A stretch of 63,937 nucleotides of DNA, the filler included, from Hausera hauseri (taxonomy: Eukaryota), in NCBI GenBank assembly GCA_046269625.1. It is 10 parts of 10 records of this genome, joined end to end, with 100 filler letters (N's around TTAATTAATTAA, not from the genome) between each part and the next. Parts side by side here need not be neighbours in the genome. Positions count along the whole stretch, not along the records: positions 35,377 to 40,071 come from JBJURY010472466.1; 9 more parts are not named here. One strand, 5' to 3'. Both the position numbers and the translations under genes were made by a program. The notes beneath the pieces are model-generated. The model worked only from the letters and a program-made list of their open reading frames with translations, did not search any database and had not been told where the DNA came from. Position 1 is the first letter of the stretch; each line of letters opens with the position of its first letter. Below, in pieces: positions 3,484 through 44,997 of the stretch.

Positions 3484-5899
3484 TCCTGAATCTGATCTTG
3501 AACGCTGGATTATATTATTACAGTCTATGAAATAATATAATAATAAGAATAATGAGGGAATCTGGGCAATATGGAAAATATTTAAAATCAATTTAAGTTA
3601 AAATAACTGGTGTTCCAATAATTGTTTACTTTGTACACTACGCAATTTCCATATTTGTGAAATAGGCGATTTTGAGGCACATCTTGGGATTTGTTAACTT
3701 AACCATGTTGATTTCACAAATAAACTTTATTTTTTGTCAAAACTAACGGAACAAACGGAAATTGTGTTTACTAAATTTTAACTAAGGCGCCACCTAGTGA
3801 GTATATAAAAAGCTATTCACATTTTTGTGATTTTCAAGTAAAAACGGAGGTGTTCCGTTTGTTATGGAATATTTTCGAATTCATTTTTAAAATCAGCGTG
3901 ATTCACTGTACAAAACCTCAAATGAGCCTCAAAATGGGCCAAAATGTAATATTGATCGAATATTAATCGAAAACAAACAGTCGTGATCTCAAAACAAACA
4001 GCTGAAATTGATTAAATTTGGTTCAGAATTGATCTAATGTGATTTTACTGAGTGAATGCGAGATTTTCCTGATTGATAAATAAACAGAAAGACAATTATC
4101 CCCGTTATACCTGCTTTTTTTGGTGTAATGTATATTATTTTATTTACCTACGTTAACACACAGTGAAAAATCAAGCATAAATGCTTGATTGGTTTTTCAT
4201 AAAATTCAGACATTATTTAACTTCTGATCTTTACACTTTGATCTTCTGTGAGTCTTATTTATTGTGTTGCGTACGACTGATAAATTACGTATTATCTTAT
4301 TTGATAGACATATACGATTGATTACGTAGTATCTTATTTGATAATCTTATCATATTTGCATTTTTCATTTCCTTAATTACACAGTGTTGATTTTGTATTC
4401 ATGAATCTATTTCTTTCTCAATATATCCACAAGTAATAATAATTATCAAATTAACCGTTGAAAATAAAGTTAATATTCAGTCGACCAGGTCAACTCCACC
4501 TGACGGCAGCCAGTCTAATTAAGTAATCCAGAGGCAACTAATATCGTAAGAACTAAAGTCAAAATCAGCCTCAACGGCCACTAACCCCTACACATCACTA
4601 TATAGGATAGAGTTAGATAAGATTCTTGTATTGTTTCACCCTCTTTGCACGCGATTAAAGTAAAAAGGGATAAACTTGTTCTCCTCATTATTTCTAATTT
4701 ACGTGATTAATAAAAGTATCTCCCAAGCGGAATTAGTGAGGACTGAACATATTGTCGTTACATAAAAATCAACTTGACTGAATTTGTCTTCAGTAAAATC
4801 ATAAATATAAAATTTTAACAACATTTAAAAAAATAAAACATTAAATGATCAAAGGATCATCAATACTTTTGGCAATAGGCGTATATAAATTTCAGGTATT
4901 TCAAAGAGAATGGCAAACTCGTATTTTACTTTCAAGTAACTTTTAAACATGGTGTATAATTCTGGAATGAAACATTAATTAGACAATGGTTTTATATATC
5001 ATACCGTATGGGTCCAAAAAGCACGGACTTTTTTGTTTTGACACGTAAACAAACGATAAGAATTGTCAAAACATTTTTATTATATCTATTTTTGTAGAGC
5101 TCTTTTCGCTGATCAGTTTGCTAAAAGAAATTTTTATTTTCCATGTGCTATGACAATGTCATAATCCAAAAACTAAACACTGTAGTAAAAAGTGGATAAA
5201 AAGTACAATACATAGGAACTTACGTACATGTTGCAAATGACGAGAAAGAGCACTTAATTACCTAAAACAGAGATTTAAATTGAGAACTTGAGGTACATTA
5301 GTAGGGAGAAAATGAGCATTCGCCCTCACCCCCTCACGGAAACTGCTAATGTGTGAATCAATTTTGCATATACGTCAATCGATAGTGTAACCGGAAAATG
5401 TGCATGACAACGGCGCCTTTCGAGTGCAATCCATTACAAATACGATACATTAAAAGACATTTCACGTTTGGTCGATAGTTCATGTAATTGATGTATTAAA
5501 ACAAATTGTTTTGCAATATTCGAAAATCGATAAAATTCAAATAAAACAAATCAATACAATTGAAATTCAAATAAAAATCAAGAAATTTGAAATTCAAATC
5601 AAGAAATTCAAAATTTTTAACTTAAAATCTATATACGAGGCAGTGTGCGTTGATATGGTTATATTTTTCATTACTTCAGAAATCGCTTTCAAGAATGGTG
5701 AGTTTTTCAATTGTGCTCCACAAATCATTGTGTTTCATTCTAGAATTACAAATCAATGATATTATGCGCTCCACAAAAATTTCAGAATAACGGTTCCTAT
5801 GCGAATTGCCCCACGCAGTGCACAATCCGTAAAACTATCATGATACAGTACAGTGCTACTATGGATACAAATTCCACAGGATCCTGAATTATATTTATC

Positions 5900-7240
5900 C
5901 AGAATGTGAGGCTGTATGTGATGCCGAATACATGCACTTTTATGAAGATCATATTGCCCATTTGACAGATTTCAAGCCAGAGTCAAAGAAGGCCATCTTT
6001 AATGAGCAACATAATTTTAATGAATCTGCTTCGCAGCATGATGCATCACAGAATGCTGCGGGGGCTGCTGCAGCAGCTGCAAAGCATATTAGAGAATTGA
6101 AACGCGCGGCAACATGCGCAGCAGCAACATGCAGCGCAGAGTCAGGTGCAGTCACATCAGGCGCAGCGGCTCCACCAAAGGTAACGAGTGAAGTGCAAAG
6201 TCCGCAGATATATCATATCTGCAACTGGTCAAACAACGCTCCATGCGTTTCTGGAATACACAAAGGACGAAACAGGGGAAATTCTCCAGTACAATACGGG
6301 TCAGCTCAAGCCCCTTAAAGTGAACGTGAAACTGGAGGCCACATACATCAATGTTGATGGTGAAGAATCAAATAGGACCCTCAAGACCCAAAATAGGCCC
6401 ATATTGGAAGCCACTAATATAGTAGAATGGCTGCATGAGGAACATGCGAAGCTAATCCATGAAGCTGAAGAGAGCCAAGAGAGGAAGTGTGGTTGGACCC
6501 TGGCAGCCAACAAGAGATTGCTTGTGCATGTTAAAAAGTACTCCCTCACGTGCGGCAGTTCCTATATTCAACTTCCTGAATGGATTCGGCAGATTCGGCA
6601 TCAATATCTACAACAGCGAAAACAAGTGCTTTATGTGTGCCATTCGGTGTAAAGTCCTACGGGATCAACATAATGCTTCACGAGTTTGGCTATATAAGAA
6701 TGTGCAGCACAACTATAACTTTCAACGTATCACATTCCCACCATCCATAAATGAAGTCAAAAAATTCGAGCGACTCAACAATATATCAACCAACATCTTT
6801 GGATTGGATGATGAAGAAAAATTCTACCCTCTACGAGTGTGTCATGCGGAACTGGAAGATCATAGGGATCTGCTACTACTAGATGTTGGAGAAAAGAAAC
6901 ATTACGCATGGATAAAACACCTCGAGCGTCTAGTCAGATCCCAAATTACGAAACATCACACACAAGTAGAAATACGCAAACGATGCTTGTTCCATTTCAG
7001 CGGTGATGTAGCATTGGATAAGCTTGGAAAGCATAAGATGTACTGCAAATCAATTATTGTATCAGGCCAGAATTTCCCAAAGAAGACTACATAGAATATA
7101 AGGTATTCGAGCAGAAGATCAAGGTTCCAGTAGTAATCTATTGCGACTTTGAGGCTATCCTGCGTCCAGTTCAGAGTTGCAGCCTTAATCCACAACATAT
7201 CAGCACAACAGCATACCAATATCCTGAACTCTCATCATAT
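5900..7240 (+). pseudogene. Polinton/Maverick (adintovirus-like) protein-primed DNA polymerase B, N-terminal to Exo I region, frameshifted
   Basis: Motifs (K)CGW, GSSYIQLPEWI, INIYNSENKCF, ITFPPSINEVKKFERLNNIS, HRDLLLL..HYAWIKHLERLV, KRCL..F..H..YC, and VPVVIYCDFEAIL (7125-7165, Exo I). Cut by the contig end. Confidence 0.75.
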
Positions 7241-20558: not shown

Positions 20559-21682
20559 CAGGAGTCAGGGAGTCAAGGAACTCTTCAAAGGATTTCTTAG
20601 CAGTAGCTTGATTTTGAAGGTTTTCTCCTTCAAGAAGAGATCGAGGTGGTAGAAGATATGATAATCTGTCGGTGACAGGTCCAGTAAGTAAGGCGGGTTC
20701 ACAGAGCTTAGTAGTCCAACTCCATCAGATTTCGGAGTGTCATTTTTGACACGTGAGGTTTGACGTTGTCGTGGAGGAGTATAGGACATTTTCGATTGAC
20801 CAGTGCTGTTTGAAGACGTAGTAATTTATTGTGCATTTCATCGATTAGACTACAATATATCTCGGCTGTGATGGTTTCTCCCGGATTCAGAAAACTATAA
20901 TTCACGACCCCAGCTACAGACCACTAAACTATCACATCACCTTCCTAATATGCAAATTCGGTTTGGGAAATTATTTTGGAAATTCACCTTTATCCAACCA
21001 CTGACTCGCACGTCGTCTGTTGTCATAAATAATTCATTTTGCATCGCACGTAACAATGCGATCAAGAAACGGTTCGTTTTTATTGTGCAGAAGAAGCGAT
21101 AAAAACAATTCGAAGCGGAGATTTCTCTGTTTTTCGTTCAGTTCATGCGGCCCCCACTTCTCCAGTTTCTTTGATTTATCCAGTTGGTTCAGGTGCTCAC
21201 AAAATGTTGATGAATTAACTCCTAATTGTTCTGCAAGCTCCACGACAGTTTGGTGTGGATCAGCTTCGACAAAAGCTTTCAATTCATCGTTGTCAACGGC
21301 ATAGGGACGACCAGATCTTTCTTCATCCTAGAGTCTTTCATCTCCCCCATGGAATTTTACAAACCAACGTTACACAGTTCTTTCATTTACACTGTCTTTT
21401 CCAAAGGCACAGTTTACATTACGGCTAGCTTCAGCTGCATTATGACCGAGTTTGAACTCGTATAAAAAATCGCACTCAAATGCATCTTATCCATAGCTTT
21501 GTGTCTACTCTTAAAATTTAAAGAACACAATTGATAAACTTAAACAACTGCGCACAGAAGTACAGCGTGATCAGCGCGTTGAAAGGATATACATTACTTA
21601 CACATTCGAAACTCCATTTGATTAACAATTATGCATCAAAGGTGAAATTGCAAAAACCGACATAACTTTTCGAACGACCGGA
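20559..21682 (-). mobile_element. Degenerate mariner element (Hsmar1/SETMAR-like transposase) inserted at TA into the Gypsy 3' extension
   Basis: TIR TCCGGTCGTTCGAAAAGTTATGTCGGTTTTTGC with TA at 21683-21684; ATG at 21494. Motifs WGPHEL, FLDRIVTCDAK, LLHDNVKPH and PPYLLDLSPTDYH. Confidence 0.9.
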
Positions 21683-21684
21683 TA

Positions 21685-24600
21685 GTTTAACGATAAGATC
21701 ACTCCTTGTCGAGACGAGATGGCCTTTTAGATTATTGGAGATAAGTGAAAATTTTCCATCATAACAATCTTTATGAGTTGTAGCTGCTAGGTTGGCAGTT
21801 ATATTGTAGTGGAACGATTTCCGTCGCTGGACTTTTTTGCGCCTTCTTTAACTAAAAGAATAGAAATTAACTGTGGCCAAAATAGGTTTAGAATACATAT
21901 GTGTTTCTGTTGTTTGAGGTAGGTCGCAAGGCATTTAGTGGCATTAGCTTGTACGTGTGTGCACAGACATAGGGTGATATCTTTTATCGGGCGGATTTTT
22001 TCCGTTTAGTATCGGTTAGCTTTCCAGCTTGCAGTTGTTCATTAATAAAAGGCGCATTTGTGTCATTTAATGATTCATGAGAATTCTCAGCAATTTTAGC
22101 TGTTTAAGTGTATTTTCAGATTTTCGTATTCTACCTTTTATTTTAATGCAAAAGATTAACGGGCGGAGAACAACTATTAGTAACAGGAGAACGCTCAATA
22201 TTATGATCGTCTTAAAATGTCCTTTGAATTATTTTTAGCGTATCGCATCGTAGTTATTTTCGTATTTCTCTTGGTTTTCATTATTACCCGCTTCAACGTT
22301 TTCTCCATCCGATTGATAACTTGTAAGTTTTGTCCATCTTCATCTAGTTCTGTTATAGCAACTTTGTAATGTGTCAGCCTTCAAAAAGAATCATGCGGAT
22401 GTTGGCTCTTGTGTCAATACTGTTTCACTTACAATCCACTTGTGAAGAGAACACTCGAATTTTATGGTTGCGATTTTCAGATCAAATACTGTATTGATGA
22501 GATAGTGCGTAGTTTGTTGTACAATTATATCCAATTCTCTATTAACTTTCTTAATTTCGACTGTTAGACTGGTCACTACTTTTCGTGGTGGTATTGAGGT
22601 AGTTATTGTTCTTATTGCAGTAGTCATCATTTTCAGGGCCATTTCTGTTACACCTGGTCGATCTATTCCTTTTGACCATATCCATTTGTCACTTGGTTTC
22701 TTTCCGGTCCAATACCATATTGTATATTTTCTATCGAAGGGTATCGGACAACACAAACGGCGATTGTGATAATCCGGCTCGCATCTTATAGTGTCGGTTT
22801 CATTAAATATCCAATTTTATTGTTCAATGTTTTAATATTGGGACTTTCGGTTCCACACGCTCCATCTTTCATAACTTTAGTTCAGAACGTAACGAGGAAA
22901 TCTGGTTTATTGAATTAGTATATGGTACCGGGAAATGAATAGTAAGATCTGTACCAATTTTCATTACTTCTTTTTCCAACTGCATATTGGATTCTGTACG
23001 ACATCTTGAATGAGAATCCGCAGCAAATGAGTGGTGGTTGTCATATAGGTCACAAAACTCTGGAATGGCCACGTGTGATGTAGATACTTTAGGTTTTGAT
23101 TAGCTTTTATTTTTACACAAGGATATTTTCCAACTTGAATACCTTGGTAATTTACTTCCAAGAGCTCAGTCGATATGCATGTTATTAAGCTTAGCATTAT
23201 TAATGATATTGTCGATAAATTGAGTCCTCCATTTCTCATTTTCGATTCTAACGGTGCTGATTTGCATCTATTTGCATGGACATTTATTGGTTCTGTTTTG
23301 TTTCTCTTGTTTTTATTTAAGTAACTACTGGTTTCATCTACATTTCGAATCATATAAGGACCTTTATAAGGTCTATCCAATTTTGGAGTCTTTCCTCTCT
23401 TACTCAGAGGTGTGTGCAGCATAATTATGTCTCCAGGTTTAAAATTGTGCGGTTTAGACTTTTCATCGTCTCGATTTTTATATTCTTTTTGACAGATCTT
23501 TATATATCGAGCAGTCAAATCCCATACGTATCCCACTTTTTCTTCTAACAATTTTTTATACTCCATTTCTTTTCAATGTGAGACAGATGTTTTGAAATCC
23601 GGGTAGACTGGCATGTGAGCATAAAATAAAACGGAGTTTATTTTTTATCAAATAAAATTCGTAGGATGAATCGTATTTCTGATTGGAAATAAACAAGCCT
23701 CTGTGTATTCATCACAATCATCTTGTCGTTCGTTAATCATCGTAGCCAACATATTGGTTAAAATATCGTTAAATCGTTCTAATGTTCCGTTAGTTTGTGG
23801 ATGATAAGGAGTCGTTTTCAACTGTAATATCTGAAATATTTTTGAGATTTCTGCCATGACTTCTTCCGTAAAATTTTGAGCTTGGTCAGTTAATAATTTG
23901 AAGACTGCTCCGTAGTTAAACACGATTTCTTCAACAAAAGCTTATGTGATGGTTTGAGCCTTCATATTCGGTATAGGAAATACGACTTGCCATCTCTAAA
24001 ATAAATCAACAAACACAAACATTTATTTATTTCCATTAATTGTCATCGGTAGCGGTCCCAGGATGTCCATTGCTGAGAATTCCATAGGATGTGGTGGTCA
24101 TTCCAACGGTTTAAGAGGGATTTAATTGTTGAGCCTGTTTTTCCTTGTAGTACAAATTGGACAATTTTTGCACTATTCTTGTACATCTTTAGGCATGCTG
24201 TACGAATAGTACTTTCTTTTCAGTCCGTTTAAAGTTCTCTTTACTGACTGATGTTCTCCAAGCATGTCATCATGATATTGTGTCAATAGTAGCTTTATAT
24301 CTTCTTGAGGAACGATTAAAACCAGTTTTCCTTTTTTCATGGTATAATACACCATCTTTTATTTCGTAATTTTCGGCAAATTTTATCAGATGAGCATGGA
24401 GGTTAGCATCATTCGGTATCGTTTTCTTTTGGATATATTCTTTAATATGTTTTATTGGCTCGTTATTCTGCTGCTTTTGTAACAGTGATTTTTCTTGTTC
24501 TGTAATACTCCAAATAGCTTCTATAAATCCTAGTTTATCTATTGATTCGTCTTCTTGATCTGTATCTTCGGGTTTCCTTAACAGATAGTCGGCATTTGCG

Positions 24601-25240
24601 TTCTTCTTCCCGGTTTATATTCGAACTATAAATTATATGGTTGGAGTAATATAGCCCATTTCATTAAAAGGCTATTCCGACTTTTATGATTTTTTAACCA
24701 TTGTAATGGTTTATGGTCAGTGTAAACAACATTTGGTTTTGTTTCTGATAAGTATTGACCGTATTGCTCCAGTGCGTATACAACTGCAAGTAATTCTCTT
24801 TCAATTGTAGTTTCTTTCATGCTTTCTCAGCTGCCTTCCTCCCAATGATATGGGATATTCTTGGTCCTTATCATCTTTTTAAGGCAAAGCAGCTCCAATA
24901 CCAACTTTACTCGCATCTGTATATAGGAAATATGGCTTTGACATATTTGGATAAGCCAATATAGTTGGTGCCAGTAAATTATCCTTTAATTGTTGATACG
25001 CTTTTTGGCATTCTTGTATCCATACAAGCTTTGAATTCTGTTGCAATAACAAATGTAGTGAAGCGGCTATTTGCTGATAGTCTTTAACAAATTTTCGATA
25101 ATAACCTGTTAGACCGAGAAACTTTCGGACTTCTCTAACTGTTTTTGGAACTGGAAAATCTTGAATTATAATAATTTTTCCCATCTGAGGACTGATGCCT
25201 TCTCTACTCACTGTATTACCTAAAACGTCAACTTTGGTTC
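21685..25240 (-). mobile_element. Gypsy LTR retrotransposon copy A (RT end, RNase H, integrase, in-frame membrane-protein extension), degenerate
   Basis: VRKFLGLTGYYRKF, LYTDASKVGIGA, IERELLAVVYAL, YTDHKPLQWL, LLTDQAQNF, TTPYHPQTNG and GPY. These are followed by VHANRCK..LSTISLIMLSLITC and by ectodomain/TM segments homologous to 36200-37820. Confidence 0.9.
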
Positions 25241-29499: not shown

Positions 29500-30200
29500 A
29501 AGTAGTAGGGCAAAGTGTACAATATCGTTATGAAAACCTGTCTTAAAGAACTCCTACGAACTGATTTCAACGGTAAATACATAGCGTTGGATTCCGTTCA
29601 TTTCAAAATTTTCAAGCAATTTAGTAAGAGTTTTGAGTTCGGAAGTATCGCCCTTGGTAACAACGGGTCGATTCAGAATGAGGTGTTGGAGTTTGTGAAG
29701 ATTTCTCTTATTTCCCATATTTTCAATTTTAAATCGACGTTTCGTGAAAGAGGCTCTCTTAGTGTCGTAAACCAGTCGAACGCTTGTTTCCATAAAGCGT
29801 TTCTTTAGTAGACCAATATTCTTCGCACTTACAACGACCTCGTTCACAGAAATTCGATATCATTACGATGATTTCACAATTCTGCTCCCAAACCATTTGA
29901 CAAAAATCCGGAATCGTATCTTTCAACGATCCCTGAGTAGCAATGTATGAATTTGGACGGTTATAACCGTCAATGAAACTGAAATTTATATAATCGGGCT
30001 TCCCGCAGAAGGAATTTTGCAAAATAACTCTACTATAATCATAAGGGAAAATATTTGTATAGCGATTTTTCAATTGATTTTCCTTTAGTTTTGCATGTGT
30101 ACTTAAATATTTGTTGGAATCAGAATTTTCGACAGCTTCAAACTCTGCTTGAAATCCCGCTCCATCGTCAGCACGACAACTAAGAATGTTCAACAAGATT
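29500..30200 (-). pseudogene. Intronless degenerate classical protein tyrosine phosphatase domain
   Basis: NQLKNRYTNIFPYDYSRVIL, DYINFS.IDGY, YIATQGS, DFCQMVWEQ, IVM and KCEEYW, then a frameshift. No WPD or HCSAG motif found. Confidence 0.75.
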
Positions 30201-32375
30201 CGAAACGGGAATTNNNNNNNNNNNNNNNNNNNNNNNNNNNNNNNNNNNNNNNNNNNNTTAATTAATTAANNNNNNNNNNNNNNNNNNNNNNNNNNNNNNN
30301 NNNNNNNNNNNNNACTGCTTCATAAGCATCTTTGGACGCATCGCAGAATGTATGTATTTCGTATTGTGACTGATCGGGTATTAAAACCTGATTTATTTGA
30401 ATCTGATCTAAATCCTGTTGTTTCGATACCCATTCTTTTGCTCCCTTAATTAAGTGGTTTGGGAGTTGTTCGTCCCAATCTGCGCCATACATCCGCATTT
30501 CTTGAATAATCAATTTTCCTTTTATTAAGTAACTACTAAGAAACCCTAATGGATCAAATATTCGAGCTACTGAGCTCAAGAATTTTCCCTTTGTAGTAAT
30601 CTCCTCTAATTGGACTCTTTTATCGAAGGAGAATACATCACTGTTAATGCTACACCTCATACCTAGAGTTTTGTCTTCGTCTCCTCACCGACAATATGGT
30701 GGCACGTTGATCTTTCATCTTCCTGTATTATTTCTTGAAATCTTTCAGAATTTGAGACTCACTTTTTCGCTGATATACTGTCTTGACTACACAAATATTT
30801 TAGATCACGGTATATTTTCACTGCTTCACATTCTGTCTTAACGGACCCCAAGCTATCATCCATGTACGTAGGGTTCTTAACAAATCCATGCTGATTCAGG
30901 TACACGTTCTGTGTGTTTCTCGGCGTTTACACGACTTAATAATTGTGCTAGGTATGGGGATGTATTCAGTCCAAATACTAATCTTTGAAATTCATATACT
31001 TTTTCAACTTTTCCTTCCTTCCATAGAAATCGTAAGCATTTTCGATCTTCTTGTGCCACCCCAATTTGTACGAACATTTTTGTGATATCACACACCATGG
31101 TAACCTCGTGTTTTCTAAATCTAATTAATATATCCACTAAATTTAGTTGCAACTATGGTCCTTGGTGAATCATATCGTTTAGGTTAAGGTCCATGCTTTT
31201 TGAGGCCGAGTCGAACACTAATCTAATTTTTGTCGTTTCTGCATCTCTTGGTACGACCGGAAAATGTGGTAGAATCCATCCCGTCATATTGGTTTTTAGT
31301 TCTTCTGTGACGTCCTTAATATAATCTTTCTTTTTGTGCTCGTCGGTTTGTTTTTGATAACCTTCTTTCAACTCTGGATCCTTTTGTAATTTATTCTCTA
31401 GCAGCGATAATCGTCTTCTAGCTACTCGATTATTATCTGACAAGTCTTGTGGGTTTCTCTTCCATAGAATACTGACCTCATAGCTGTTATTAGCATACTT
31501 CATATCTTCCTTGGATTTCTCCATTATTTTTTCTTCTTTCTCTGTCCACGGTTGGTTCTTCTCTAGCATATCTTCGAATTTCTATAACCGTTCTAAATCG
31601 TGTTTAAGTTCCGCTTCACTCGAGAAGAAACATCGAATAAAATTCGAACGCTTCTGGAAAGGTTTCGTTATTGCTGTTGGCCCAATGCATGTTCAACCTA
31701 GCGGTGTTAATTGGGCCACAGGTTCCCCTTCCTTCCCGGATATTTCTTTGATCGCTCAGTAAAGCTGGTTGTAATTCACCCCGATCAAACCATCGACTTT
31801 CCCCGACTTTATCACCTTTGGGAAGAGTATTCCCTTTAAATGATGCCATTTGTTTTTTGATATGTTCCAGTCAGCCGCGTTTAAATTTCCTACAACATTT
31901 TCGATTGCCAGTTCTGAGATCTTCATACTTAACCTTCTATTTAAACTGCAAACGTGAAATTTGATTCTTGCTGCACTTCTTCGCCTTTTCTCACAACCTA
32001 AAACCTCCACCGAGATCGACTCTGATACTTGTTTTAAATGCAGTCTATGTGCTACTGATTTACTAATATAACTATCAGTACTAGCATAATTTAACAGAAA
32101 ATTTATTTTTTCCTTATATACTCCATTGCATAATATCACCGGAATCGTTCTCAGTGACAGTTCATCTTGCTCTTCTATGTCATGCCTTCCTGTTATATAA
32201 CTCTTCTTCTGGCCATTCTTGGTTGCCTCTGACTCATTCGCACTTATTTCACTTCCTCTAGTGAGGTTTCTCTTAACTTCTCTTGCTTAATGTTATCTGG
32301 CCTATGTATCCGATTACTACTTCGTCTAACTTACTGATTTTCAGTTCTTTGTTTATCTGATTTGCTTATGGTTTT

Positions 32376-35376: not shown

Positions 35377-38300
35377 GGATATCCTAGGACCATTGCCTTT
35401 AACGATCAGTGGAAATAAATACATGTTAGTGTTTGTCGATTTGTTTTCTAGATGGCCAGTTGTAATACCGATACCTGATCAAAAAGCTCAAACTATCGCC
35501 CAGGCTTTTGTCGAAGAAATAGTTTTTAATTATGGAGCACCAACTAAATTATTGACGGATCAAGCACCGAACTTCACAGGGGAAGTTATGGCGGAAATAT
35601 CGAAGATATTTCAGATATTACAACTGAAAACTACTCCGTATCATCCTCAAACGAACGGAACAGTGGAAAGATTTAATGGAATTTTAACTAACATGTTAGC
35701 TACTATGGTTAATGAACGACAAGACGATTGGGACGAATATATTAAACCATGTTTATTCGCCATTAGAAACACTATTCATCCAGCAACAAAGGAAACACCT
35801 TTTTACTTGATGTACCTGAGAGATACTCACATGCCGATTGATTTGGATTTTAAAATCCCAATTTCCCATTTAAAAAATCTGGAATATAAAGAATTGTTAG
35901 AAGAAAAACTAGGATATGTATGGAATTTAGCTTCTCGTCACATGAAAATGTGTCAAAAAGAATATAAAGAACGCTACGATGAAAAAGCGAAACCTCATGA
36001 CTTTAAACCTGGTGATAAAGTCATGCTACATACACCCCTCAGTAAGAAAGGAAAGACACCGAAATTAGATAGACCATACAAAGGTCCATATATAGTTCAG
36101 AAAGCAGATGAAACTAACATCTATCTAAATAAAAATAAAAGAAATAAAATTGATCCTATAAAAGTTCACGTGAACAGGTGTAAACCAGCACCTATGGAGT
36201 CGAAAATGAGAAATGAAAACCTCAGTTTATTATTAATGATAACATTTATGACATTAACCTTAGTGACCAATGTAACAGCCCAAACCTTGGATGTAAATTA
36301 TAAGGCCGTACAAGTGGGAAAATATCCCTGCATAAAAATTACAGCCAATCGGAATTTGACAACAGATGAATATATACATATATTCATATCCAAATATCCG
36401 GTATTAGAAAAAACAACACCAGAAAATTGTGATTTATATTACAATCATTCGGTACACATCTGTTGTGGACTTTTATTTGGAGAAACATATAGAATTCAAT
36501 ATGCAACCGGAAAAAGTGATCAGAGTTACAGAAAATATTTCTCTTTTCCTGGTACTACACATTATTTTAATCGACCATATTTTCTTATTTCATTTTATAC
36601 TAAGATTATGAAAAATGGACCTTGTGTGACAGCAAAACCAGATGTTACAATTACAAGATATGTCACATTAAAATATATAATATTTGATGGTATTAATAGT
36701 GTACATTGCAAACCAAGTCATGAAAACCCATATATATGCTGTCCTATTGCTTTTGATAAAGAATATACGATATATTATTGGACTACATATAATGGTCGAG
36801 TCTGGTCAAAGACATCAGATGGCCCGGAGATAATGGTAAGATCTCCCCCTAGGAAAATTACAACCTCAACAAAGAAAATAATTACTTCGACAACATCGAC
36901 CACTGTAGTAACCAGCCCAATGACCGAAGCCAAGAAAGTTATCAAAGAATTAGATATAATCATACAACCTACAACCCATTCATTGGTTATTACAGCATTT
37001 GATTTAAAAATTACGAATATTAAATTCGAATGTTATTTTGGCCATAAAATAGTTGGTGAAGGAGTATTGACCCCAGATGAACCAACATCCTCCTGTATGC
37101 TTTTGGAAGCCGATACTAATTACCAAATTATTATAACAGAGCTAGACGAAGACGGACAAGTCCTACAAGTTCTCAAAAAGAAAGAGAAAACGTTGAAATT
37201 ACTTACAACTGTCACAAAAAGTGTTATGAAGATAACCACCATACAAAAAGCCGGAGTGACTTCAAATAAATACCTTTGGATAATTATTATATTATGTACT
37301 CTTTTAATATCACTAGTCATACTGTCACCTCTAACAATTTACTGTTTAAAAATAAGACGGCGACAATATAAAGTAGAGAAAATGATAAATCATTTAAAAA
37401 TGTTAAGAGAAAATTCCCAAGACTTTTTAAACGTAAGTGCGCCATTTTTAGAAAACCAACGGCAAGCCAAAGAGCTTACCGATCAAGGGCGGCGACATCC
37501 ACCGCTTGAGGACACAACCGTATGTCTGTGTATACAAATTTATGATAAGGCCGCTGAATTCCTAGTGACCTATATAAGAAATAAACGATCAAAGAAAGAA
37601 AATATTATTCTTTTTAAAACTTCTTGGTTAATATTGATACTTCTCTTTTTAGTCCAAGAAGGCTCAGAATCAGTCCAGAGGCCCAATGCATTCTACAATC
37701 ATATATCGGCCAATCTTCTAGCCACTATCCATAAAAACTATTGCTATTATGGTAAAGCAATGTTCATCCCAAATAATCTGAAGGGACATTTAGTATGTCA
37801 AAGAACTGGTCTTCTTCTCAAACTTCAAACAAGATCAACAAACCTCTCGGATTTGGTAAACATATCCACAAAAACGTTTGCCACCTATATCTCGGTAGCG
37901 AAAGAAAGAGTTCAGCTTAAAAGCAAATCACTTTCTACCAGAATCACGGATACTATGGACATTACAGAGCGAACAACAATTCGTTTAGACCCTCGTTTTT
38001 ATATAAACGTTGCTTAAACCCTCCGGACATACGATACACCTTGTCCAGTAGTATACATAGAGGTGATAAAAAAGGAAAATATACCTCGACTAACTTACGA
38101 AATTGAAAAATACCCTACATCTAGACCTAAGGAAACTGAAGTAGAAAGAGGCCTATCCTTTTTAAGGAGACCAATACAATTAAAGTCAGAAATTGTAATT
38201 ATGGCAATTAATACAGTGTATTTAATGACCCCTATCAGAAGCAAAGAAACGACAATAGTTGAGATAACCCTAATAGATTTAGAAGGTAATATTATAAAAG

Positions 38301-39136
38301 ATGAAATTCTGACCCCAAGAGAGAGAATAGATAATTACAATAGTCATTTTACCGGTTTAAAAGAAGCTGATATTCTTGGCCAAAGGGACTCCTATGAAGA
38401 AGAACCCTATATCCGGAAGGCAATATTTGGCAAGGTAATAGTTGGTCTTGACGTATATCATATGTTGGCAACCACTCTTAGATACGATTATAACAATTTT
38501 CTTGGCATTAGGGATCTATTGCACCATACAGAGATCAATTCCCATCAGGAATATACTGTAAAGCAACTTCTTATGAAATATAACGATGAAGTATATCCTC
38601 AAAAGACGAAAGAGAAGGCCTTAATTATACTTGAGATCTATAATACAATTTCGGAATATAAAAACGAACATTTCAAAAGTAATACAACCCCCATGGAAAC
38701 TCAAGAATCAGAAACTATCCAACAAGTGCTTATCCAGATAGCACCTATGTCAATAAAATCTAAACCCCTGAAGACTCAATCGACACCATCTCAGTCAGTA
38801 ACTGAACAATCAATGTAAAATCAATCAATACCTGATAATCAACCAATCTCAGCCACGACTTCGATAACGAAAGAATGTTATATAAGTCTAAAGCCTTTAA
38901 CATTAGCTAGTTCTACAGAATCCGTCTTCGTTGATTTAACAAAGAAATCAAAGAATAAAAAGAAAATCCCAAAATTAGAGACGATCACCTTAAAAAGAAC
39001 GATCAAGAAAAAAGGAAGAAGCCTCCAGATTAAATCAGTCGATTACCAGGACATAAATGGAGTTATTGAAGTCTACCCCTTGATGTTGAGGACAACATCA
39101 ACTGGAAAGGGAGATGTCGAACCAGTTAACCGTTAA
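35377..39136 (+). CDS. Gypsy copy B: integrase plus in-frame extension (signal peptide, Cys-rich repeats, Thr stalk, FN3-like, TM, second hydrophobic segment, DEDDh-like fold, basic tail); one frame with two internal TAA codons
   Basis: The 874-aa ORF has DDE integrase motifs (VDLFSRW, LLTDQAPNF, HPQTNGTVERFN) and GPY. The 38063 ORF is in the same frame. Stops occur only at 38015-38017 and 38816-38818 before the final TAA at 39134-39136. Confidence 0.85.
38190..38650 (+). other. REX4/ISG20-like DEDDh exonuclease fold lacking catalytic residues
   Basis: IVIMAINTV..IVEITLIDLEGNIIKDEILTPRERIDNYNSHFTGLKEADI..GKVIVGLDVYHML..IRDL aligns by eye to the REX4 pattern VAMDCEMV..ARVSIVN..G..VYDKYVKP...VTDYRT.VSGI..GRILVGH.L.NDL..IRDT. 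Confidence 0.65.
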
Positions 39137-39669
39137 CCAAGCTAAACGAGAAAAAACAATAAAATAAATGCAGGGAAATAAACCCACTAATCATTAACAG
39201 TTGTTGTTGACCGAAAATATTGATCAATCCACTGAACATAATTGTATTTTTATTTCTAACTCATTTTCAGTAATTGATCCTCAATTGATTCTATCATACC
39301 ATAATGTATTTTTATTTTCTTTTTATTGTATTGTATGAGTCTCAATGGTATAAATACTGTTACGTTTCCTCACTCAAATTATTATTATAATTTCGTGTAT
39401 TCATCGACTTGAAAAACGTTCTATGATGATTGACGGATGTAAGAATATTTGTTTTTGTTTTTGTTTTTATTTTCATTTTTGACCGTAGTAATTTCATATT
39501 CTTAATTACATATTTTTGGTTATTTAATTGTTCTTAATTGTGTCAAAGTAAAGTATTTAAGTAAAGAAGTCATAAGTAAAGAATACATCGTAGTAAGAAA
39601 ATTTACATTAAATTAAAAAGGGCCCTATTTGGTATACCGTCCCTTCAGGACGGTTGTTAAAATCTTGAT

Positions 39670-39990
39670 AAATAAGGGTGAGCTACGTCAGTGTCCCTCC
39701 TGACGATACTCATACATTAAGGCCAAATAACTAAAAGTAATTAACATCGGCGGACCCACAGGCCGTTGATTACCACTATATAGTAAGTAAAGTTTGAGAC
39801 AGGGAGAGTACTCAAGCTTTTAAGTAAAGAAGTATAAGTTTAAGGTCGTAAGACCAATAAATCTTAGCCTATAAACTTATCATACTCAAAAAATGAAATA
39901 AAAAACTTTAAAAACAAAGTTTTAAAAAACTACGTATGTTATTTATTTGGAAATGTACGTTAATAATTTGTAACGAGGGTATGTAACATA
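39670..39990 (+). repeat. Probable PPT and 3' LTR of Gypsy copy B
   Basis: Purine tract AAATAAGGGTGAG, then TATATA (~39776), AATAAA (~39856) and a ..TGTAACA end near 39988. No second LTR is available to confirm. Confidence 0.4.
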
Positions 39991-40171: not shown

Positions 40172-43100
40172 AAGGCATAGTTAAGACTGTATGTATTCTC
40201 GTTTAATATCACATTGCACGGATTGGTGGCATTTGCATTCATTAAATGATTTTTTGCATTTTCAAACCAATTCTTGCTTCTTTGAGGGTTTGAATTGACA
40301 TGGTATCTATAGAAGGGAAAGTCAACAAAGTATATATGTTACTTAACCATATCATAACCGTTATCAACCTATCTGCGGTAACCGGTATGATTTTATTTAT
40401 ATTTATCCATAATTGTAGGGTAACTATGACATATCCAGTTATCCTTAGTTTCCGGATTACTTGTATCGTAATCCGGTTACACCATCGTCAGCTTGGAGTT
40501 GATGCCTCCAAGGTATTTTGTATCCGTCGCAAGTCAATCCTTATCCATTGGTGTCTGCGACGGTTTCGAGTATGTTGAATTATTCTTATTAATATTATTA
40601 CTATAATGATTACTGTGAGAGGAACTATTACACCAATAATTATCAATTCTATTCTCGAATAAGTGTAATTGGCACGTATCGGTTTTATAGTGGTTTTGTA
40701 GAAATAACTTGTCTTTTCGTGCAACGGTCTTATTACCATATTAATTTTGGTTTGTGCTGTTAATATTTTATTGATCACTACTTTATTATTACTGCCAATT
40801 AACTGTAGAAAAACTGTATATGTCATGTTTGGTATAAGAGCCGCGCAGGGTGCTATCAAATCGTCTGGAGTTATTGTACCCTTAGCCACTACTTTATTTC
40901 GCATTTTGCACGTAAATCTTACCATTATAAAGTCAAGGTCCGGCCTCACAGAAATTATTAAAGAAGTCGGGGCTGTAATTATTGCAACATTTTCCCAAAT
41001 GGAACATCTCTGGCGTATATAAGAGGTGTAAGGTTTAATTAATATGGTCATTTTCTTTTCATTATTTTTACCTTATTTGTTGGTAGGAACTGCACCACCG
41101 GCGCCGCGAAGTTCTGTCTCTTTTCATCACGTTTTATAAGGTTCTTATATCGTATGTACATAGTTGGACCACTTATTTTTAATTTATTCTTTAGCCATCC
41201 ATTCTCTTTTTGGATTAATGCATATTTTACACTATAAATTTTCCCTCGGCTTACGTTACAACAAGTTTGTCTCTGTTCGTGCGTTATATAGCATTTCGTA
41301 GATACTGGATTTTTACTTCACTCCTCTTTTATATATACTGTTATCCATCTTATATATTCTAATTCTATTGTACTTGTTACATCGATGCAACTTCTACCAT
41401 TTTTAAATCCTACCTATTTAACTATAATCTGGCTAATTATTACTGCATCTAATTGGGTTTCGTTCATATGACGACGATTAGGAATTAATATAGATCTCAT
41501 CCTTCTTGTATATAGACTTCGATAATAATTATCTTAGTTTTTAATTAATGTGTAATGTACTTGATACATGCCTGATTCTTTAATGATATAGTCTGTCTAC
41601 ATTTTCCAATGGCTTAACATGCAGCCATATTTATGTTCTAAGGGGTTTTGATTAGACCGCGACGATATAACTTGGATTCTTATCATATATTGGATAGATA
41701 CGGGTATTGTAGTATGGAATTTCACGCATTTATTACCGGTTCTGTCATATTGTATTTGATATCGAACACTCCTTAATAATATATCCTCAGATATTGCGGT
41801 CGAATGACGTATCTTTGCTTGTATTATATCCCTCTCGGTCAACTGTGTTATGGCACTAGGCAATAAAAGGTATATTAACAATACCACGTACTTACTTAGA
41901 TTGAGTGTCCTGCAAGGTTTGTTCGTTATCGCCCTAACCCAGTCTGATTCATTTATTCAAAGTTTACTTTCCTTAGCTGCTGGTTTGCACCTATTAATAT
42001 GGACCTTTGAAATGATATTATTTTTCTTGAGAAATATATTAGGCAGATCTACTTTTCCTTTGTATGACCTGTCTAATTTCGATGTTTTTCTTTTTTATTT
42101 AATGGTGTGTATAACATCATAGAGTCCACAACTTGAACTTTGGGTTGGTTAGTCTTCTTATAATATTTCTTATAGGTTACTTTATAATCTTTCTGATTTT
42201 CTTTTACTAGGCCATATGCTAGTTGTAATCGCTCCTTCATTACTTGTTTATATTCTTCTATTTCCATTAAATGGGAAATAGGTTTAGTATTAAAATCCAA
42301 ATCAATTGGTAACCTAGCATCTCTTAAGTACATCAAATAAAATGGAGTTTCTTTTGTCGCTTCGTGTACAGAGGTTCGATTTACGAAAACACACGCATTA
42401 ATATATTCGTCCCAGTCATCCTGCCTTGTATTGTCTACGGTATGTAATTTACTTTTCAAATCGCCTATATATCGCTCTACCATTCCATTGTTTTCTGGAT
42501 GTTCCAGTGTTGACCGTAATTTCAATATTCGTAAAATATCGTATATGGCTTGCATCACTTGGCCTGTTAAATTAGATGCCTGACCCGCCAGTAGGATCCT
42601 TGAAGCTCCATAATTAAATACTATATTTTCCACAAACTTTTCTGCAGTAGTATCCGCCTTAATGTCAGGCATAGGTAGGGCCACGACCCACCGTGTAAAA
42701 TAATCTATAAATACTAAGATGTATCTATTACCGTTTCTTGTTAGCGGTAGTGGTCCCGTTATGTCCATAGCTGTAAACTCGAATGGAGCCGGTGGATTAT
42801 CCCATACTATCAAGGGTGCCTTGAACTTCGTTCCAGTATTCTTTCTAGTGGCGCACAATTTTCAACTATCACACCAATCCTGAGCATCCTTTGCCATAGA
42901 GGGCCAGAAATATTTTCTCTTTAGTTTGTTAATAGTTTTTCTTGCTGATTGGTGTCCGCCTAGTAATCCATCATTATATTGAGTCAATAATACCGTTCTA
43001 TTTTTCTGCGGAATTACCAGCGCCGGTCCATTTTGATGGATATAATACAAAAATCCTTCCTTCTTTTCGTAGGCTTCCCCAAATCTAGCCAAGTGTCTAG

Positions 43101-44997
43101 CTAGCTCCCTGTCTTTTGGTACTATTTTGTTCTGCATAAAATTTCTGATTTCTTTTATCTCCGAATCCTCCCGTTGGTTCTCCTTTATTTTTTCTGTTGA
43201 CCCGTCCATACTCCATATGGCCGCTACTACTTCTTTTGTCTTTGCTTCCTGAGGCATTCTTAAAAAGTAGTCTGCATTGGCGTTTTGCGAACCTGGCTTA
43301 TATTTAAATTCCAATGTATACGGTTGCAACTTTAATGCCCACCGTAATAATCTACTGTTAGGATTCTCATGATTTTTCAACCATTGTAACGGTCGATGAT
43401 CGGTATATACCACTAATGGTTTGCTCTCACTTACATACGGTGAGAATACTTCTAGAGCAAAGATCACCGCCAGTAATTCTTTTTCTATTACCGAATATTT
43501 CATTTGATGTTTGTTTAACTTCTTTGACGTGTATGCCACCGGGTGTTCCTTTCTATCCTTATCTTTCTGTGATAGCACTGCCCCCACTCCATAATCGCTT
43601 GCATCGGTTGCCAATATAAAGGATTTAGTCATGTCTGGGTATATGAGGATAGGAGCGTTTAATAGTTTTTCTTGTAAGTTATCAAAAGCCTTTGACACTC
43701 ATTGGTCCATACCACTTTTTCCAAATCCTCCCGTAATAGTTCATACAGTGGTTTTGCTATTTTGTTAAACTCTTTTCTAAATCTGCGATAGTGGTTTACT
43801 AATCCAAGGAACCGTCGTAATTATTTTACTGTAGTTGGTTTTGGGAAATCTTTTATTTTCCCTAATAGTTTATCCTGGGGCTTTACACCGTTTCTATCCA
43901 CTCGATGTTCGAGGAAATTAACCTCGGTTTGAGCGAACATATATTTCTTTAGGTTTATTTTTAAACCCATGATCTTACATCTATCGAAGAGATCCTGTAA
44001 ATCTTTCAGGTGTTGCTGAAAATCCACCTATGCAATTATTACATCATCGATATATACCATGGCATGTGATGCGTCTAAGAGTAGTAGTTCCGTTCCTCGT
44101 TGAAAGTTTGGCGGTCCGCTTTTTAATCCAAATGGCATTCTATTGAATTCCCATAGTCCTTCTCCTATCGAAAACGCTGTTTTAGGTTTATCTTCCTCTT
44201 TCACCTCCACTTGCCAATATCCATTTTGTAGGTCGATAGTGGTGAATATTGTGGCACCGTGTAGTTTATCCAATATTTCATCGATCTTTGGCAATGGATA
44301 GGTGTCGGTTTCTGTTACCTCATTTAATTCCCTATAATCTATACAGAATCTCATCGTACCGTCTTTCTTCTTGACCATCACTACTCTATCAGTCTACGGC
44401 GAGCAACTTGGTCGTATTATTTTATTCTTTCTCATTTCTTTTATGATTTTTCGGGCTTCCTCTTTTTTGTCATATGCTAACTTATAAGGCCGTTTTCAAT
44501 GAGTTTCTCTTGTCCCTCCTTTAGCTTGATAACATATTGAATGACGTTCATTGTTCCTAAGTCATAGTCATTATGGGCAAACCGACCATTATTGTTTTCT
44601 AATAGATGAAGTAGCATTTCTTTTTCTTCTTTTGTCAGTGCCGTGGAATTTTGTAGTTTCTCTTCCCAATTAATCGTAGGTGTCTTTTTCCCCTTCTCTT
44701 GATTAATGTCCAACTTCAGTTTTTTCGACATCATCTTTTCGATCCTATCTATATCTGATATGATTGACTTGATCTCATTCTTGAGTATTTCTTCGATAGC
44801 CGTTACCGACCCAAGCCTGGTATTCTGTTTTAGTCCTTTTTCTTTCGTTCCTGCGTTACAGAGTCTCAGGTGGATTTTTCCATCTTTTACTTTATCCACA
44901 TGTGGTGCCACTAAAATGTGTTTCTCCATTACGTATGGAGATGGTTCAAAATAAACTGATCTTGTTAGTAACTTCCTTTCTATTCTACCCGGCACTA
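40172..44997 (-). mobile_element. Gypsy copy C (RT, RNase H, integrase and homologous membrane-protein extension), degenerate and more divergent
   Basis: RFCIDYRELN, IDLQNGYWQV, MPFGLK, YIDD, ATDASDYGVGAVL, IDYFTRW and VHINRCKP. Then VVLLIYLLLPSA, the FN3-like CAALIPNMTYTV, and TM IELIIIGVIVPLTVIIIVIILIRII followed by basic residues. Confidence 0.9.

Follow-up and report, generated by a model that had tools for sequence, protein, structure and literature searches.

The window analysed here comprises 63,937 nucleotides of the Hausera hauseri assembly GCA_046269625.1. Its contigs are strung together with N44-TTAATTAATTAA-N44 spacers, and this concatenation gives no linkage between neighbours. 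The contig at 35377-40071 (JBJURY010472466.1) holds part of a Ty3/gypsy retrotransposon in which the integrase (IN) runs in frame into a membrane protein containing a fibronectin type III (FN3) fold, and on into an exonuclease-like region (Table 1). This element is termed copy A; relatives on two other window contigs are termed copies B and C. The 5' edge of the contig cuts into the integrase, and gag, env, protease (PR), reverse transcriptase (RT) and RNase H (RH) are not on it. The giant Pol polyprotein proposed by an earlier, sequence-only reading is therefore not visible. The rve core and GPY/F region of the integrase are present on the contig. RH is followed by IN in copy B, copy C has the order RT-RH-IN, and relatives have PR-RT-RH-IN.

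The membrane protein behind the integrase

Starting at 35378, the +2 frame stays open as far as a TAA codon at 38015-38017, continues to a second TAA at 38816-38818 and ends with TAA at 39134-39136. No stop closes the integrase after VHVNRCKPA, and from there 981 codons were counted to the frame end, in agreement with the approximately 980 of the sequence-only reading, whose signal-like segment, Thr-rich stretch, transmembrane (TM) helix with KIRRR and second hydrophobic segment were also recovered in place. Copies B and C likewise have a signal-like segment in frame after the integrase; in C a single stop separates the two.

The ectodomain was modelled using AlphaFold2 with an eight-row alignment. 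Repeat 3 was modelled with seven strands at a pLDDT (predicted local distance difference test) of 60-88 and was matched to FN3 domains by Foldseek, bearing out the FN3-like domain read earlier. The best VIA-align match was human fibronectin (6mfa; root-mean-square deviation 2.3 over 84 residues) at Z 9.7, a value which only modestly exceeds those of many other FN3/Ig chains, and the structure comparison also showed resemblance to the FN3 ectodomains of cytokine receptors and receptor phosphatases. The ESM Atlas label for the ectodomain was FN3 at 0.86, which was used as a lead only. Repeats 1 and 2 are akin to each other and may share the FN3 fold, repeat 1 probably being a divergent FN3.

The extension is under purifying selection. 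From signal peptide to TM helix (351 codons) copies A and B differ with pN 0.28 and pS 0.67, giving a ratio of non-synonymous to synonymous change (dN/dS) of ~0.21, and with 116/91/175 substitutions at codon positions 1/2/3; copy B is itself decayed, so that dN is inflated in this comparison. The dN/dS was 0.20 over 66 codons at the start of the accessory region and ~0.5 over 98 codons of tail and linker. The extension shows third-position bias and recurs across the clade described below, more than chance would give; it lies inside the element and does not evolve neutrally.

The contig itself is the 3' part of a dead, decaying copy. Public run X1 (44% of sampled words) supplied 5,756 contigs across all 30 bins, mostly at 80-95% identity. 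At the first TAA, each of the 11 X1 contigs listed has something other than the window sequence, and this stop is therefore private to the window copy. The 29 other window-private differences within the frame, among those listed, are spread evenly over codon positions (10/10/9; 20 non-synonymous, 9 synonymous), a pattern that neutral decay would give. A variant genetic code with TAA as a sense codon was ruled out by 46 CAA/CAG codons against two in-frame TAA. No clear polypurine tract was found on the contig, where the 5' end of the element is missing.

Table 1. Features of the element (copy A) and of its relatives in the window.
Feature	Position	Strand	Basis
Integrase: catalytic core and C-terminal GPY/F region; contig edge truncates the 5' end	35378-36190	+	Pfam rve E 3e-12; 48-57% identity to clade relatives
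Signal peptide within the frame, with small -3/-1 residues (V-T-A)	36221-36280	+	Sequence; equivalent in copies B, C and 10/10 clade relatives; predicted cleavage
Repeat 1, Cys-containing, beta-rich, probably divergent FN3	36281-36565	+	Pfam Fn3_Dep-1_3rd E 0.003, below cut-off; seven strands, pLDDT mostly <50
Repeat 2, Cys-containing, fold not established	36572-36847	+	hhalign to repeat 1, probability 81%; low-confidence model
Thr/Ser-rich stalk	36860-36928	+	Sequence
Repeat 3, FN3 fold	36941-37207	+	Model, fold search, profile
TM helix (37274-37348) and basic stop-transfer KIRRR	37274-37363	+	Hydropathy; shared with copies B and C and every clade relative
Cytosolic tail and open linker to accessory ORF in window sub-family	37364-37603	+	No stop; weaker constraint, dN/dS ~0.5
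T-rich tract ending in AG (37651-37652), splice-acceptor-like, hydrophobic when translated	37604-37654	+	55% T vs 27% for frame
Accessory-ORF homologue: N-terminal domain and catalytically dead ISG20/REX4-like DEDDh domain	37676-38650	+	Homology to L004 ORF; broken by TAA 38015-38017
Low-complexity and Lys/Arg-rich tail	38651-39136	+	Sequence; broken by TAA 38816-38818; tails variable in relatives
Probable part of 3' long terminal repeat (LTR), ends undefined	39616-39929	+	Summed contig depth 4,400-5,900 vs 16-23 just upstream
Copy B, degraded relative: RH, IN, signal peptide, repeats, TM, linker, start of accessory region	21632-25240	-	tblastn 47-68% identity over IN and repeats
Transposase remains, presumably mariner-like, interrupting copy B just after accessory-region start	20559-21630	-	Sequence
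Copy C, more distant relative: RT, RH, IN, signal peptide, repeats, TM	40172-44997	-	53% identity in integrase, 27% in repeat 3
ORF, open reading frame.

Relatives of the element and their upstream glycoprotein

Relatives were reached only by integrase queries. The extension alone as query gave none among 4,316 candidates from longer proteins, no match in 1.84 billion representatives, none confirmed among viral contigs and none in a PDB sequence search, while an ectodomain profile returned only P0005, itself a row of that profile. The integrase search among long proteins gave 103 matches, seven of which stand apart at 48-57% identity. A metagenome scan by integrase added the close loci L004-L010, and three weak matches from a viral-contig scan with an integrase alignment were not used. 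Full-length MAFFT failed to align the tails, and in-frame hydrophobic segments after the integrase were counted in 172 non-window rows: at least two were present in 13, one in 3 and none in 156. Twelve of the 13 rows, which represent 10 distinct elements, cluster with copies A, B and C with 98% support in the Shimodaira-Hasegawa-like approximate likelihood ratio test (SH-aLRT), and the thirteenth, L010, falls just outside. Among the 160 other non-window rows outside the clade, at least two segments were seen in this sister only.

All 10 distinct clade relatives have the order integrase, signal peptide, ectodomain, TM, and an FN3 repeat is detectable in six of them. A profile of ten repeats (P0005, P0006, P0007, P0011) found the held-out L007 and L009 with E 1e-12 to 4e-6; on repeat 3 of the window it scored only 7.6 bits, equalled by ~4/1000 shuffles. 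A relatives-only profile of 16 repeats matched repeat 3 of copy A at E 3.7e-4 (0/1000 shuffles) and that of copy C at E 5e-6.

Relatives encode a single giant ORF of 2,871-3,865 aa. A gB/chuvirus-type fusion glycoprotein (PF24664, E <1e-88) lies in this same ORF, between gag and protease, in P0009, P0010, P0012, P0108 (the 90% cluster of P0005) and L007, and thus in all five clade relatives that reach far enough upstream; the sister L010 also carries it. This placement speaks against the earlier proposal that the extension is the envelope. The extension gave no match in Pfam to a class I or III fusion-protein family, although the gB of the relatives was easily detected there. Model and structure searches likewise found no fusion-protein fold in the extension, the modelled part being FN3. 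With gB placed upstream in relatives, the FN3 protein probably represents an additional surface protein, not the fusogen, and possibly an attachment partner of gB.

In L007 a single frame of 3,426 aa (L007:2-10279) encodes gB, a unit of signal peptide, FN3 and TM, pol, and a second such unit. The additional unit lies just before the protease, directly behind gB in L007 and at residues 50-230 in P0011, and the unit is therefore modular.

Other domains were noted after the integrase. Aspartic-protease-like domains stand between integrase and signal peptide in P0006, P0007/L004, P0009/L006 and P0010, and ankyrin repeats do so in P0006 and P0007. The sister lineage (L010:440-8518) combines gB with a post-integrase signal peptide, ectodomain and TM; its ectodomain is Cys/aromatic-rich and gave no FN3-profile match.

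The exonuclease-like region and splice-acceptor-like sites

Residues 770-1192 of the window frame align to a separate ORF, L004:7268-8740 (25% identity, 452 alignment columns, E 1e-10), and the alignment runs straight across the first stop (profile E 3e-8). As a single sequence the region matches ISG20L2 at E 0.008, and the profile of the accessory family matches ISG20L2, SDN1 and ISG20, at E 1.8e-21 for the best. The ESM Atlas label was RNase_T at 0.94; a single-sequence fold gave pLDDT 32 and no usable model. The DEDDh-like domain of the sequence-only reading is thus confirmed. None of the D-E-D-H-D residues is present in the window version, and the set is lacking also in L004:7268-8740 and L009:3723-5873. 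All five residues are kept in L004:9043-10371, L006 and L007.

Full-length exonuclease ORFs are separate and lie downstream of the polyprotein in L004 (two), L006, L007 and L009, with one cut by the contig end in L005. The earlier view of the exonuclease as a standard part of the polyprotein is not borne out by these relatives, by the dead residues of the window version or by copy C, which ends shortly after the TM helix. In L004:7268-11517 and L009:2055-5873, serial accessory ORFs include dead and intact DEDDh paralogues and a RING-finger ORF; a ubiquitin-like ORF among them is a weak match (E 0.04).

In the relatives the exonuclease is probably expressed from a separate, spliced ORF. An AG lies 0-1 nt from the first ATG in 5/8 accessory ORFs, against 115/902 background ATGs, and four of these sites also have at least 8/12 pyrimidines (background 10/902, themselves included). 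Predicted acceptors in relatives include L005:3838 and L004:9042. The tract at 37604-37654 ranks 3/277 among AG sites of its contig and its counterpart in copy B 1/215, by an ad hoc acceptor score. It sits at the start of accessory homology in both copies, and the copy B counterpart is not hydrophobic enough for a TM helix. This hydrophobic segment, previously read as a membrane element, looks like a translated splice-acceptor tract. In copy C the polyprotein ends after the TM tail, and an acceptor-like site follows with an ATG 5 nt behind; the accessory profile gave no match to the short piece there. The joint top score belongs to another strong acceptor-like site, at 39245-39270 (+), with a CTAAC-like branch point, pyrimidine tract and CAG. 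It lies after the exonuclease region, without a long ORF behind it, and is perhaps a relic of another accessory gene.

The joining of TM tail and exonuclease region was read, from the sequences, as a derived state of the A/B sub-family, which may or may not be functional. That it is instead an accident of decay in the window copy or its lineage, with the linker a non-coding spacer, is quite conceivable, though short of an even chance. In the linker, A and B differ by 16/15/19 substitutions at codon positions 1/2/3, without a clear coding bias; codons 676-764 contain five frameshifting indels, and copy C and the relatives stop after the tail. On the other hand, both A and B have long stop-free stretches through the linker, the indels total a multiple of three, and neither copy has an in-frame ATG behind the acceptor. 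This alternative touches the exonuclease join only, and the remainder of the explanation given below could stand with it.

Interpretation and comparison with known systems

The window element is taken to be a Burro-like, gB-bearing (GAG-ENV-POL) Ty3/gypsy element of an invertebrate, both its gB and its host group being predicted. From its anatomy, and from what internal signal peptides, FN3 domains and DEDDh enzymes are established to do, we infer processing, topology, splicing and function as follows. One giant ORF would be translated and threaded through the membrane of the endoplasmic reticulum (ER) by internal signal peptides, in the order gag (cytosol), gB-type fusion protein (lumen, TM), PR-RT-RH-IN (cytosol), signal peptide, one to three FN3-type domains, stalk, TM and cytosolic tail. 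Cleavage by signal peptidase, with the element protease also cutting the polyprotein, would free the FN3 protein as a type I membrane protein made one-to-one with gB. The processed polyprotein of the sequence-only reading is retained to this extent: the in-frame fusion of signal peptide, FN3 and TM is present and consistent with processing, and the cleavage itself is presumed. The FN3 protein would most likely act in attachment or adhesion on the surface of particles or cells, with gB supplying fusion. The DEDDh exonuclease, active in some members and a conserved pseudo-enzyme in others, would normally be made from a spliced ORF further downstream, its most likely task being to counter host RNA defence or to bind element RNA; in the window sub-family a dead version would stand in frame with the tail of the membrane protein. 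This explanation is held with fair, though not strong, confidence. Herpesvirus gB-type fusogens depend on partner glycoproteins.

Several points weigh against it. The integrase tree is a quick search of 78/175 rows based on integrase only, and stops interrupt many of the outside locus rows, in which a tail may thus go unseen. The five other clade relatives start too far downstream to be judged for gB, and tblastn found no gB in the window, where the upstream part of the element is missing and gB would for that reason be unseen. P0018 carries gB without a post-integrase tail, so gB elements can do without one. The 16-repeat profile found no match in P0009/L006, P0010, P0012, L005 and L010, and the clade ectodomain is accordingly either FN3 in some members only or too diverged. 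No confident AlphaFold2 model was obtained for repeats 1 and 2 (pLDDT mostly <50), the ectodomain has two N-glycosylation sequons only, and the likeness of repeat 3 to FN3, with its small lead over other chains, by itself gives no function. As to splicing, the pre-ATG sites of L004, L007 and L009 fall outside the top 6 of their loci by the ad hoc score, and the linker is open in A, with the in-frame ATG missing as noted.

The main rival makes the FN3-TM protein a host-modulating cargo (receptor decoy, adhesion or signalling mimic) with no role in particle entry, which we regard as unlikely. The clade is rich in cargo, with ankyrin repeats and extra protease-like domains after the integrase and with accessory ORFs of RING and ubiquitin-like type; in Burro, apoptosis and ubiquitin domains are described (PMC6431247). 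The FN3 repeats resemble receptor ectodomains, as noted, and their number and sequence are highly variable. Against this, other cargo comes and goes whereas the signal peptide, ectodomain and TM keep the same place in 10/10 relatives, and L007 has its second unit directly behind gB. It is very improbable that the extension is itself a non-canonical envelope with the exonuclease a regular polyprotein part released by a second signal: the frame of copy A is open from TM to exonuclease region (a 52-codon non-coding stretch of this composition would be stop-free by chance in ~2%), with no dominant frameshifting indel there among the X1 rows listed, but the extension lacks any fusion-protein fold or family match while the true fusogen lies upstream in relatives, where the exonuclease is separate; in the window the latter is dead, and the second hydrophobic segment is not kept as such in B.

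A bolder form of the favoured two-protein explanation is doubtful as a whole. In it the clade would consist of two-glycoprotein retroviruses, with a gB fusogen and a captured FN3 attachment protein made from one polyprotein that crosses the ER membrane repeatedly around pol, and with spliced accessory genes including an ISG20/SDN-like nuclease directed against small-RNA defence; in the window lineage the dead nuclease and basic tail would form a cytosolic part tethering RNA or capsids to the budding membrane.

Elsewhere in the window, the five contigs of 4.7-5 kb at 20559-44997 are AT-rich and mostly LTR-derived, and may derive from a second organism in the sample; several of the other contigs resemble teleost repeats. 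A piece of a protein-tyrosine-phosphatase domain lies at 29762-30211 (-; Pfam E 3e-32) on a contig which also holds another gypsy element. Frameshifted ORFs at 5833-7094 (+) resemble Polinton/Maverick DNA polymerase regions.

Among known enzymes the accessory family is closest in this comparison to the DEDDh exonucleases ISG20, ISG20L2 and SDN1 (PDB 1wlj, 7yw5, 5z9x; profile E 2e-21 to 5e-15), from which the window, L004:7268-8740 and L009:3723-5873 versions differ in having lost the catalytic set. The Juno/Vesta LTR elements of bdelloid rotifers have a DEDDy ORF3, typically spliced, and thus share a DnaQ-fold exonuclease as a separate ORF after pol, and small TM ORFs too (PMC5408684). Their enzymes are DEDDy/RNase D-like with intact residues (PMC5408684), whereas those of the present clade are DEDDh, ISG20/REX4/SDN1-like, with intact and dead paralogues, and here the TM protein is within the polyprotein. 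The giant polyprotein of the planarian nidovirus PSCNV includes a DEDDh ExoN as well as ankyrin and Thr-rich domains and domains named after fibronectin, but it is an unrelated RNA virus with fibronectin type II, not type III, and serves as an analogy only (PMC6211748).

Burro/GYPSM1, the giant gypsy of planarians, has one giant ORF with env in frame between gag and pol; this env matches mononegavirus fusion glycoproteins, and its accessory ORFs may alternatively be polyprotein subdomains (PMC6431247). Burro elements are 25-30 kb long. The giant ORF, the in-frame env between gag and pol and the ankyrin and ubiquitin-like cargo are common to Burro and the clade relatives; compared by description only, section 7 of that account mentions for Burro neither an FN3 domain nor a membrane protein after the integrase nor an exonuclease ORF. 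The overall layout, held to be unrecognised in the sequence-only reading, is therefore known, and only its FN3-TM module was not found described. The word 'fibronectin' is absent from the main text of PMC6431247, PMC13524379, PMC5408684 and PMC6338049, and no post-integrase FN3 protein was found in the literature searched, which did not extend to the original Burro description or Repbase, so that prior annotation is possible. The extension is a clade-wide, selected feature on a known chassis, and its post-integrase FN3-TM module may be new. An ORF after integrase is not necessarily env. The clade further brings retroviral-style complexity to Ty3/gypsy elements, in the form of internal signal peptides on both sides of pol, accessory ORFs that are likely spliced, and DEDDh nucleases both active and pseudo.

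GAG-ENV-POL errantiviruses with an HSV (herpes simplex virus)/gB-type env are described from Nematoda, Bryozoa and Platyhelminthes, and combine a Ty3/gypsy pol with a gB-type env upstream, as do the five clade relatives that could be judged (PMC13524379). The main text of that 2026 survey does not contain 'fibronectin', 'exonuclease' or 'ankyrin'; how elements with gB alone enter cells is, it states, unknown, given that HSV requires gD, gH and gL. A conserved FN3 membrane protein from the same polyprotein as gB is a concrete candidate for such a partner, by which the question of gB-errantivirus entry becomes testable.

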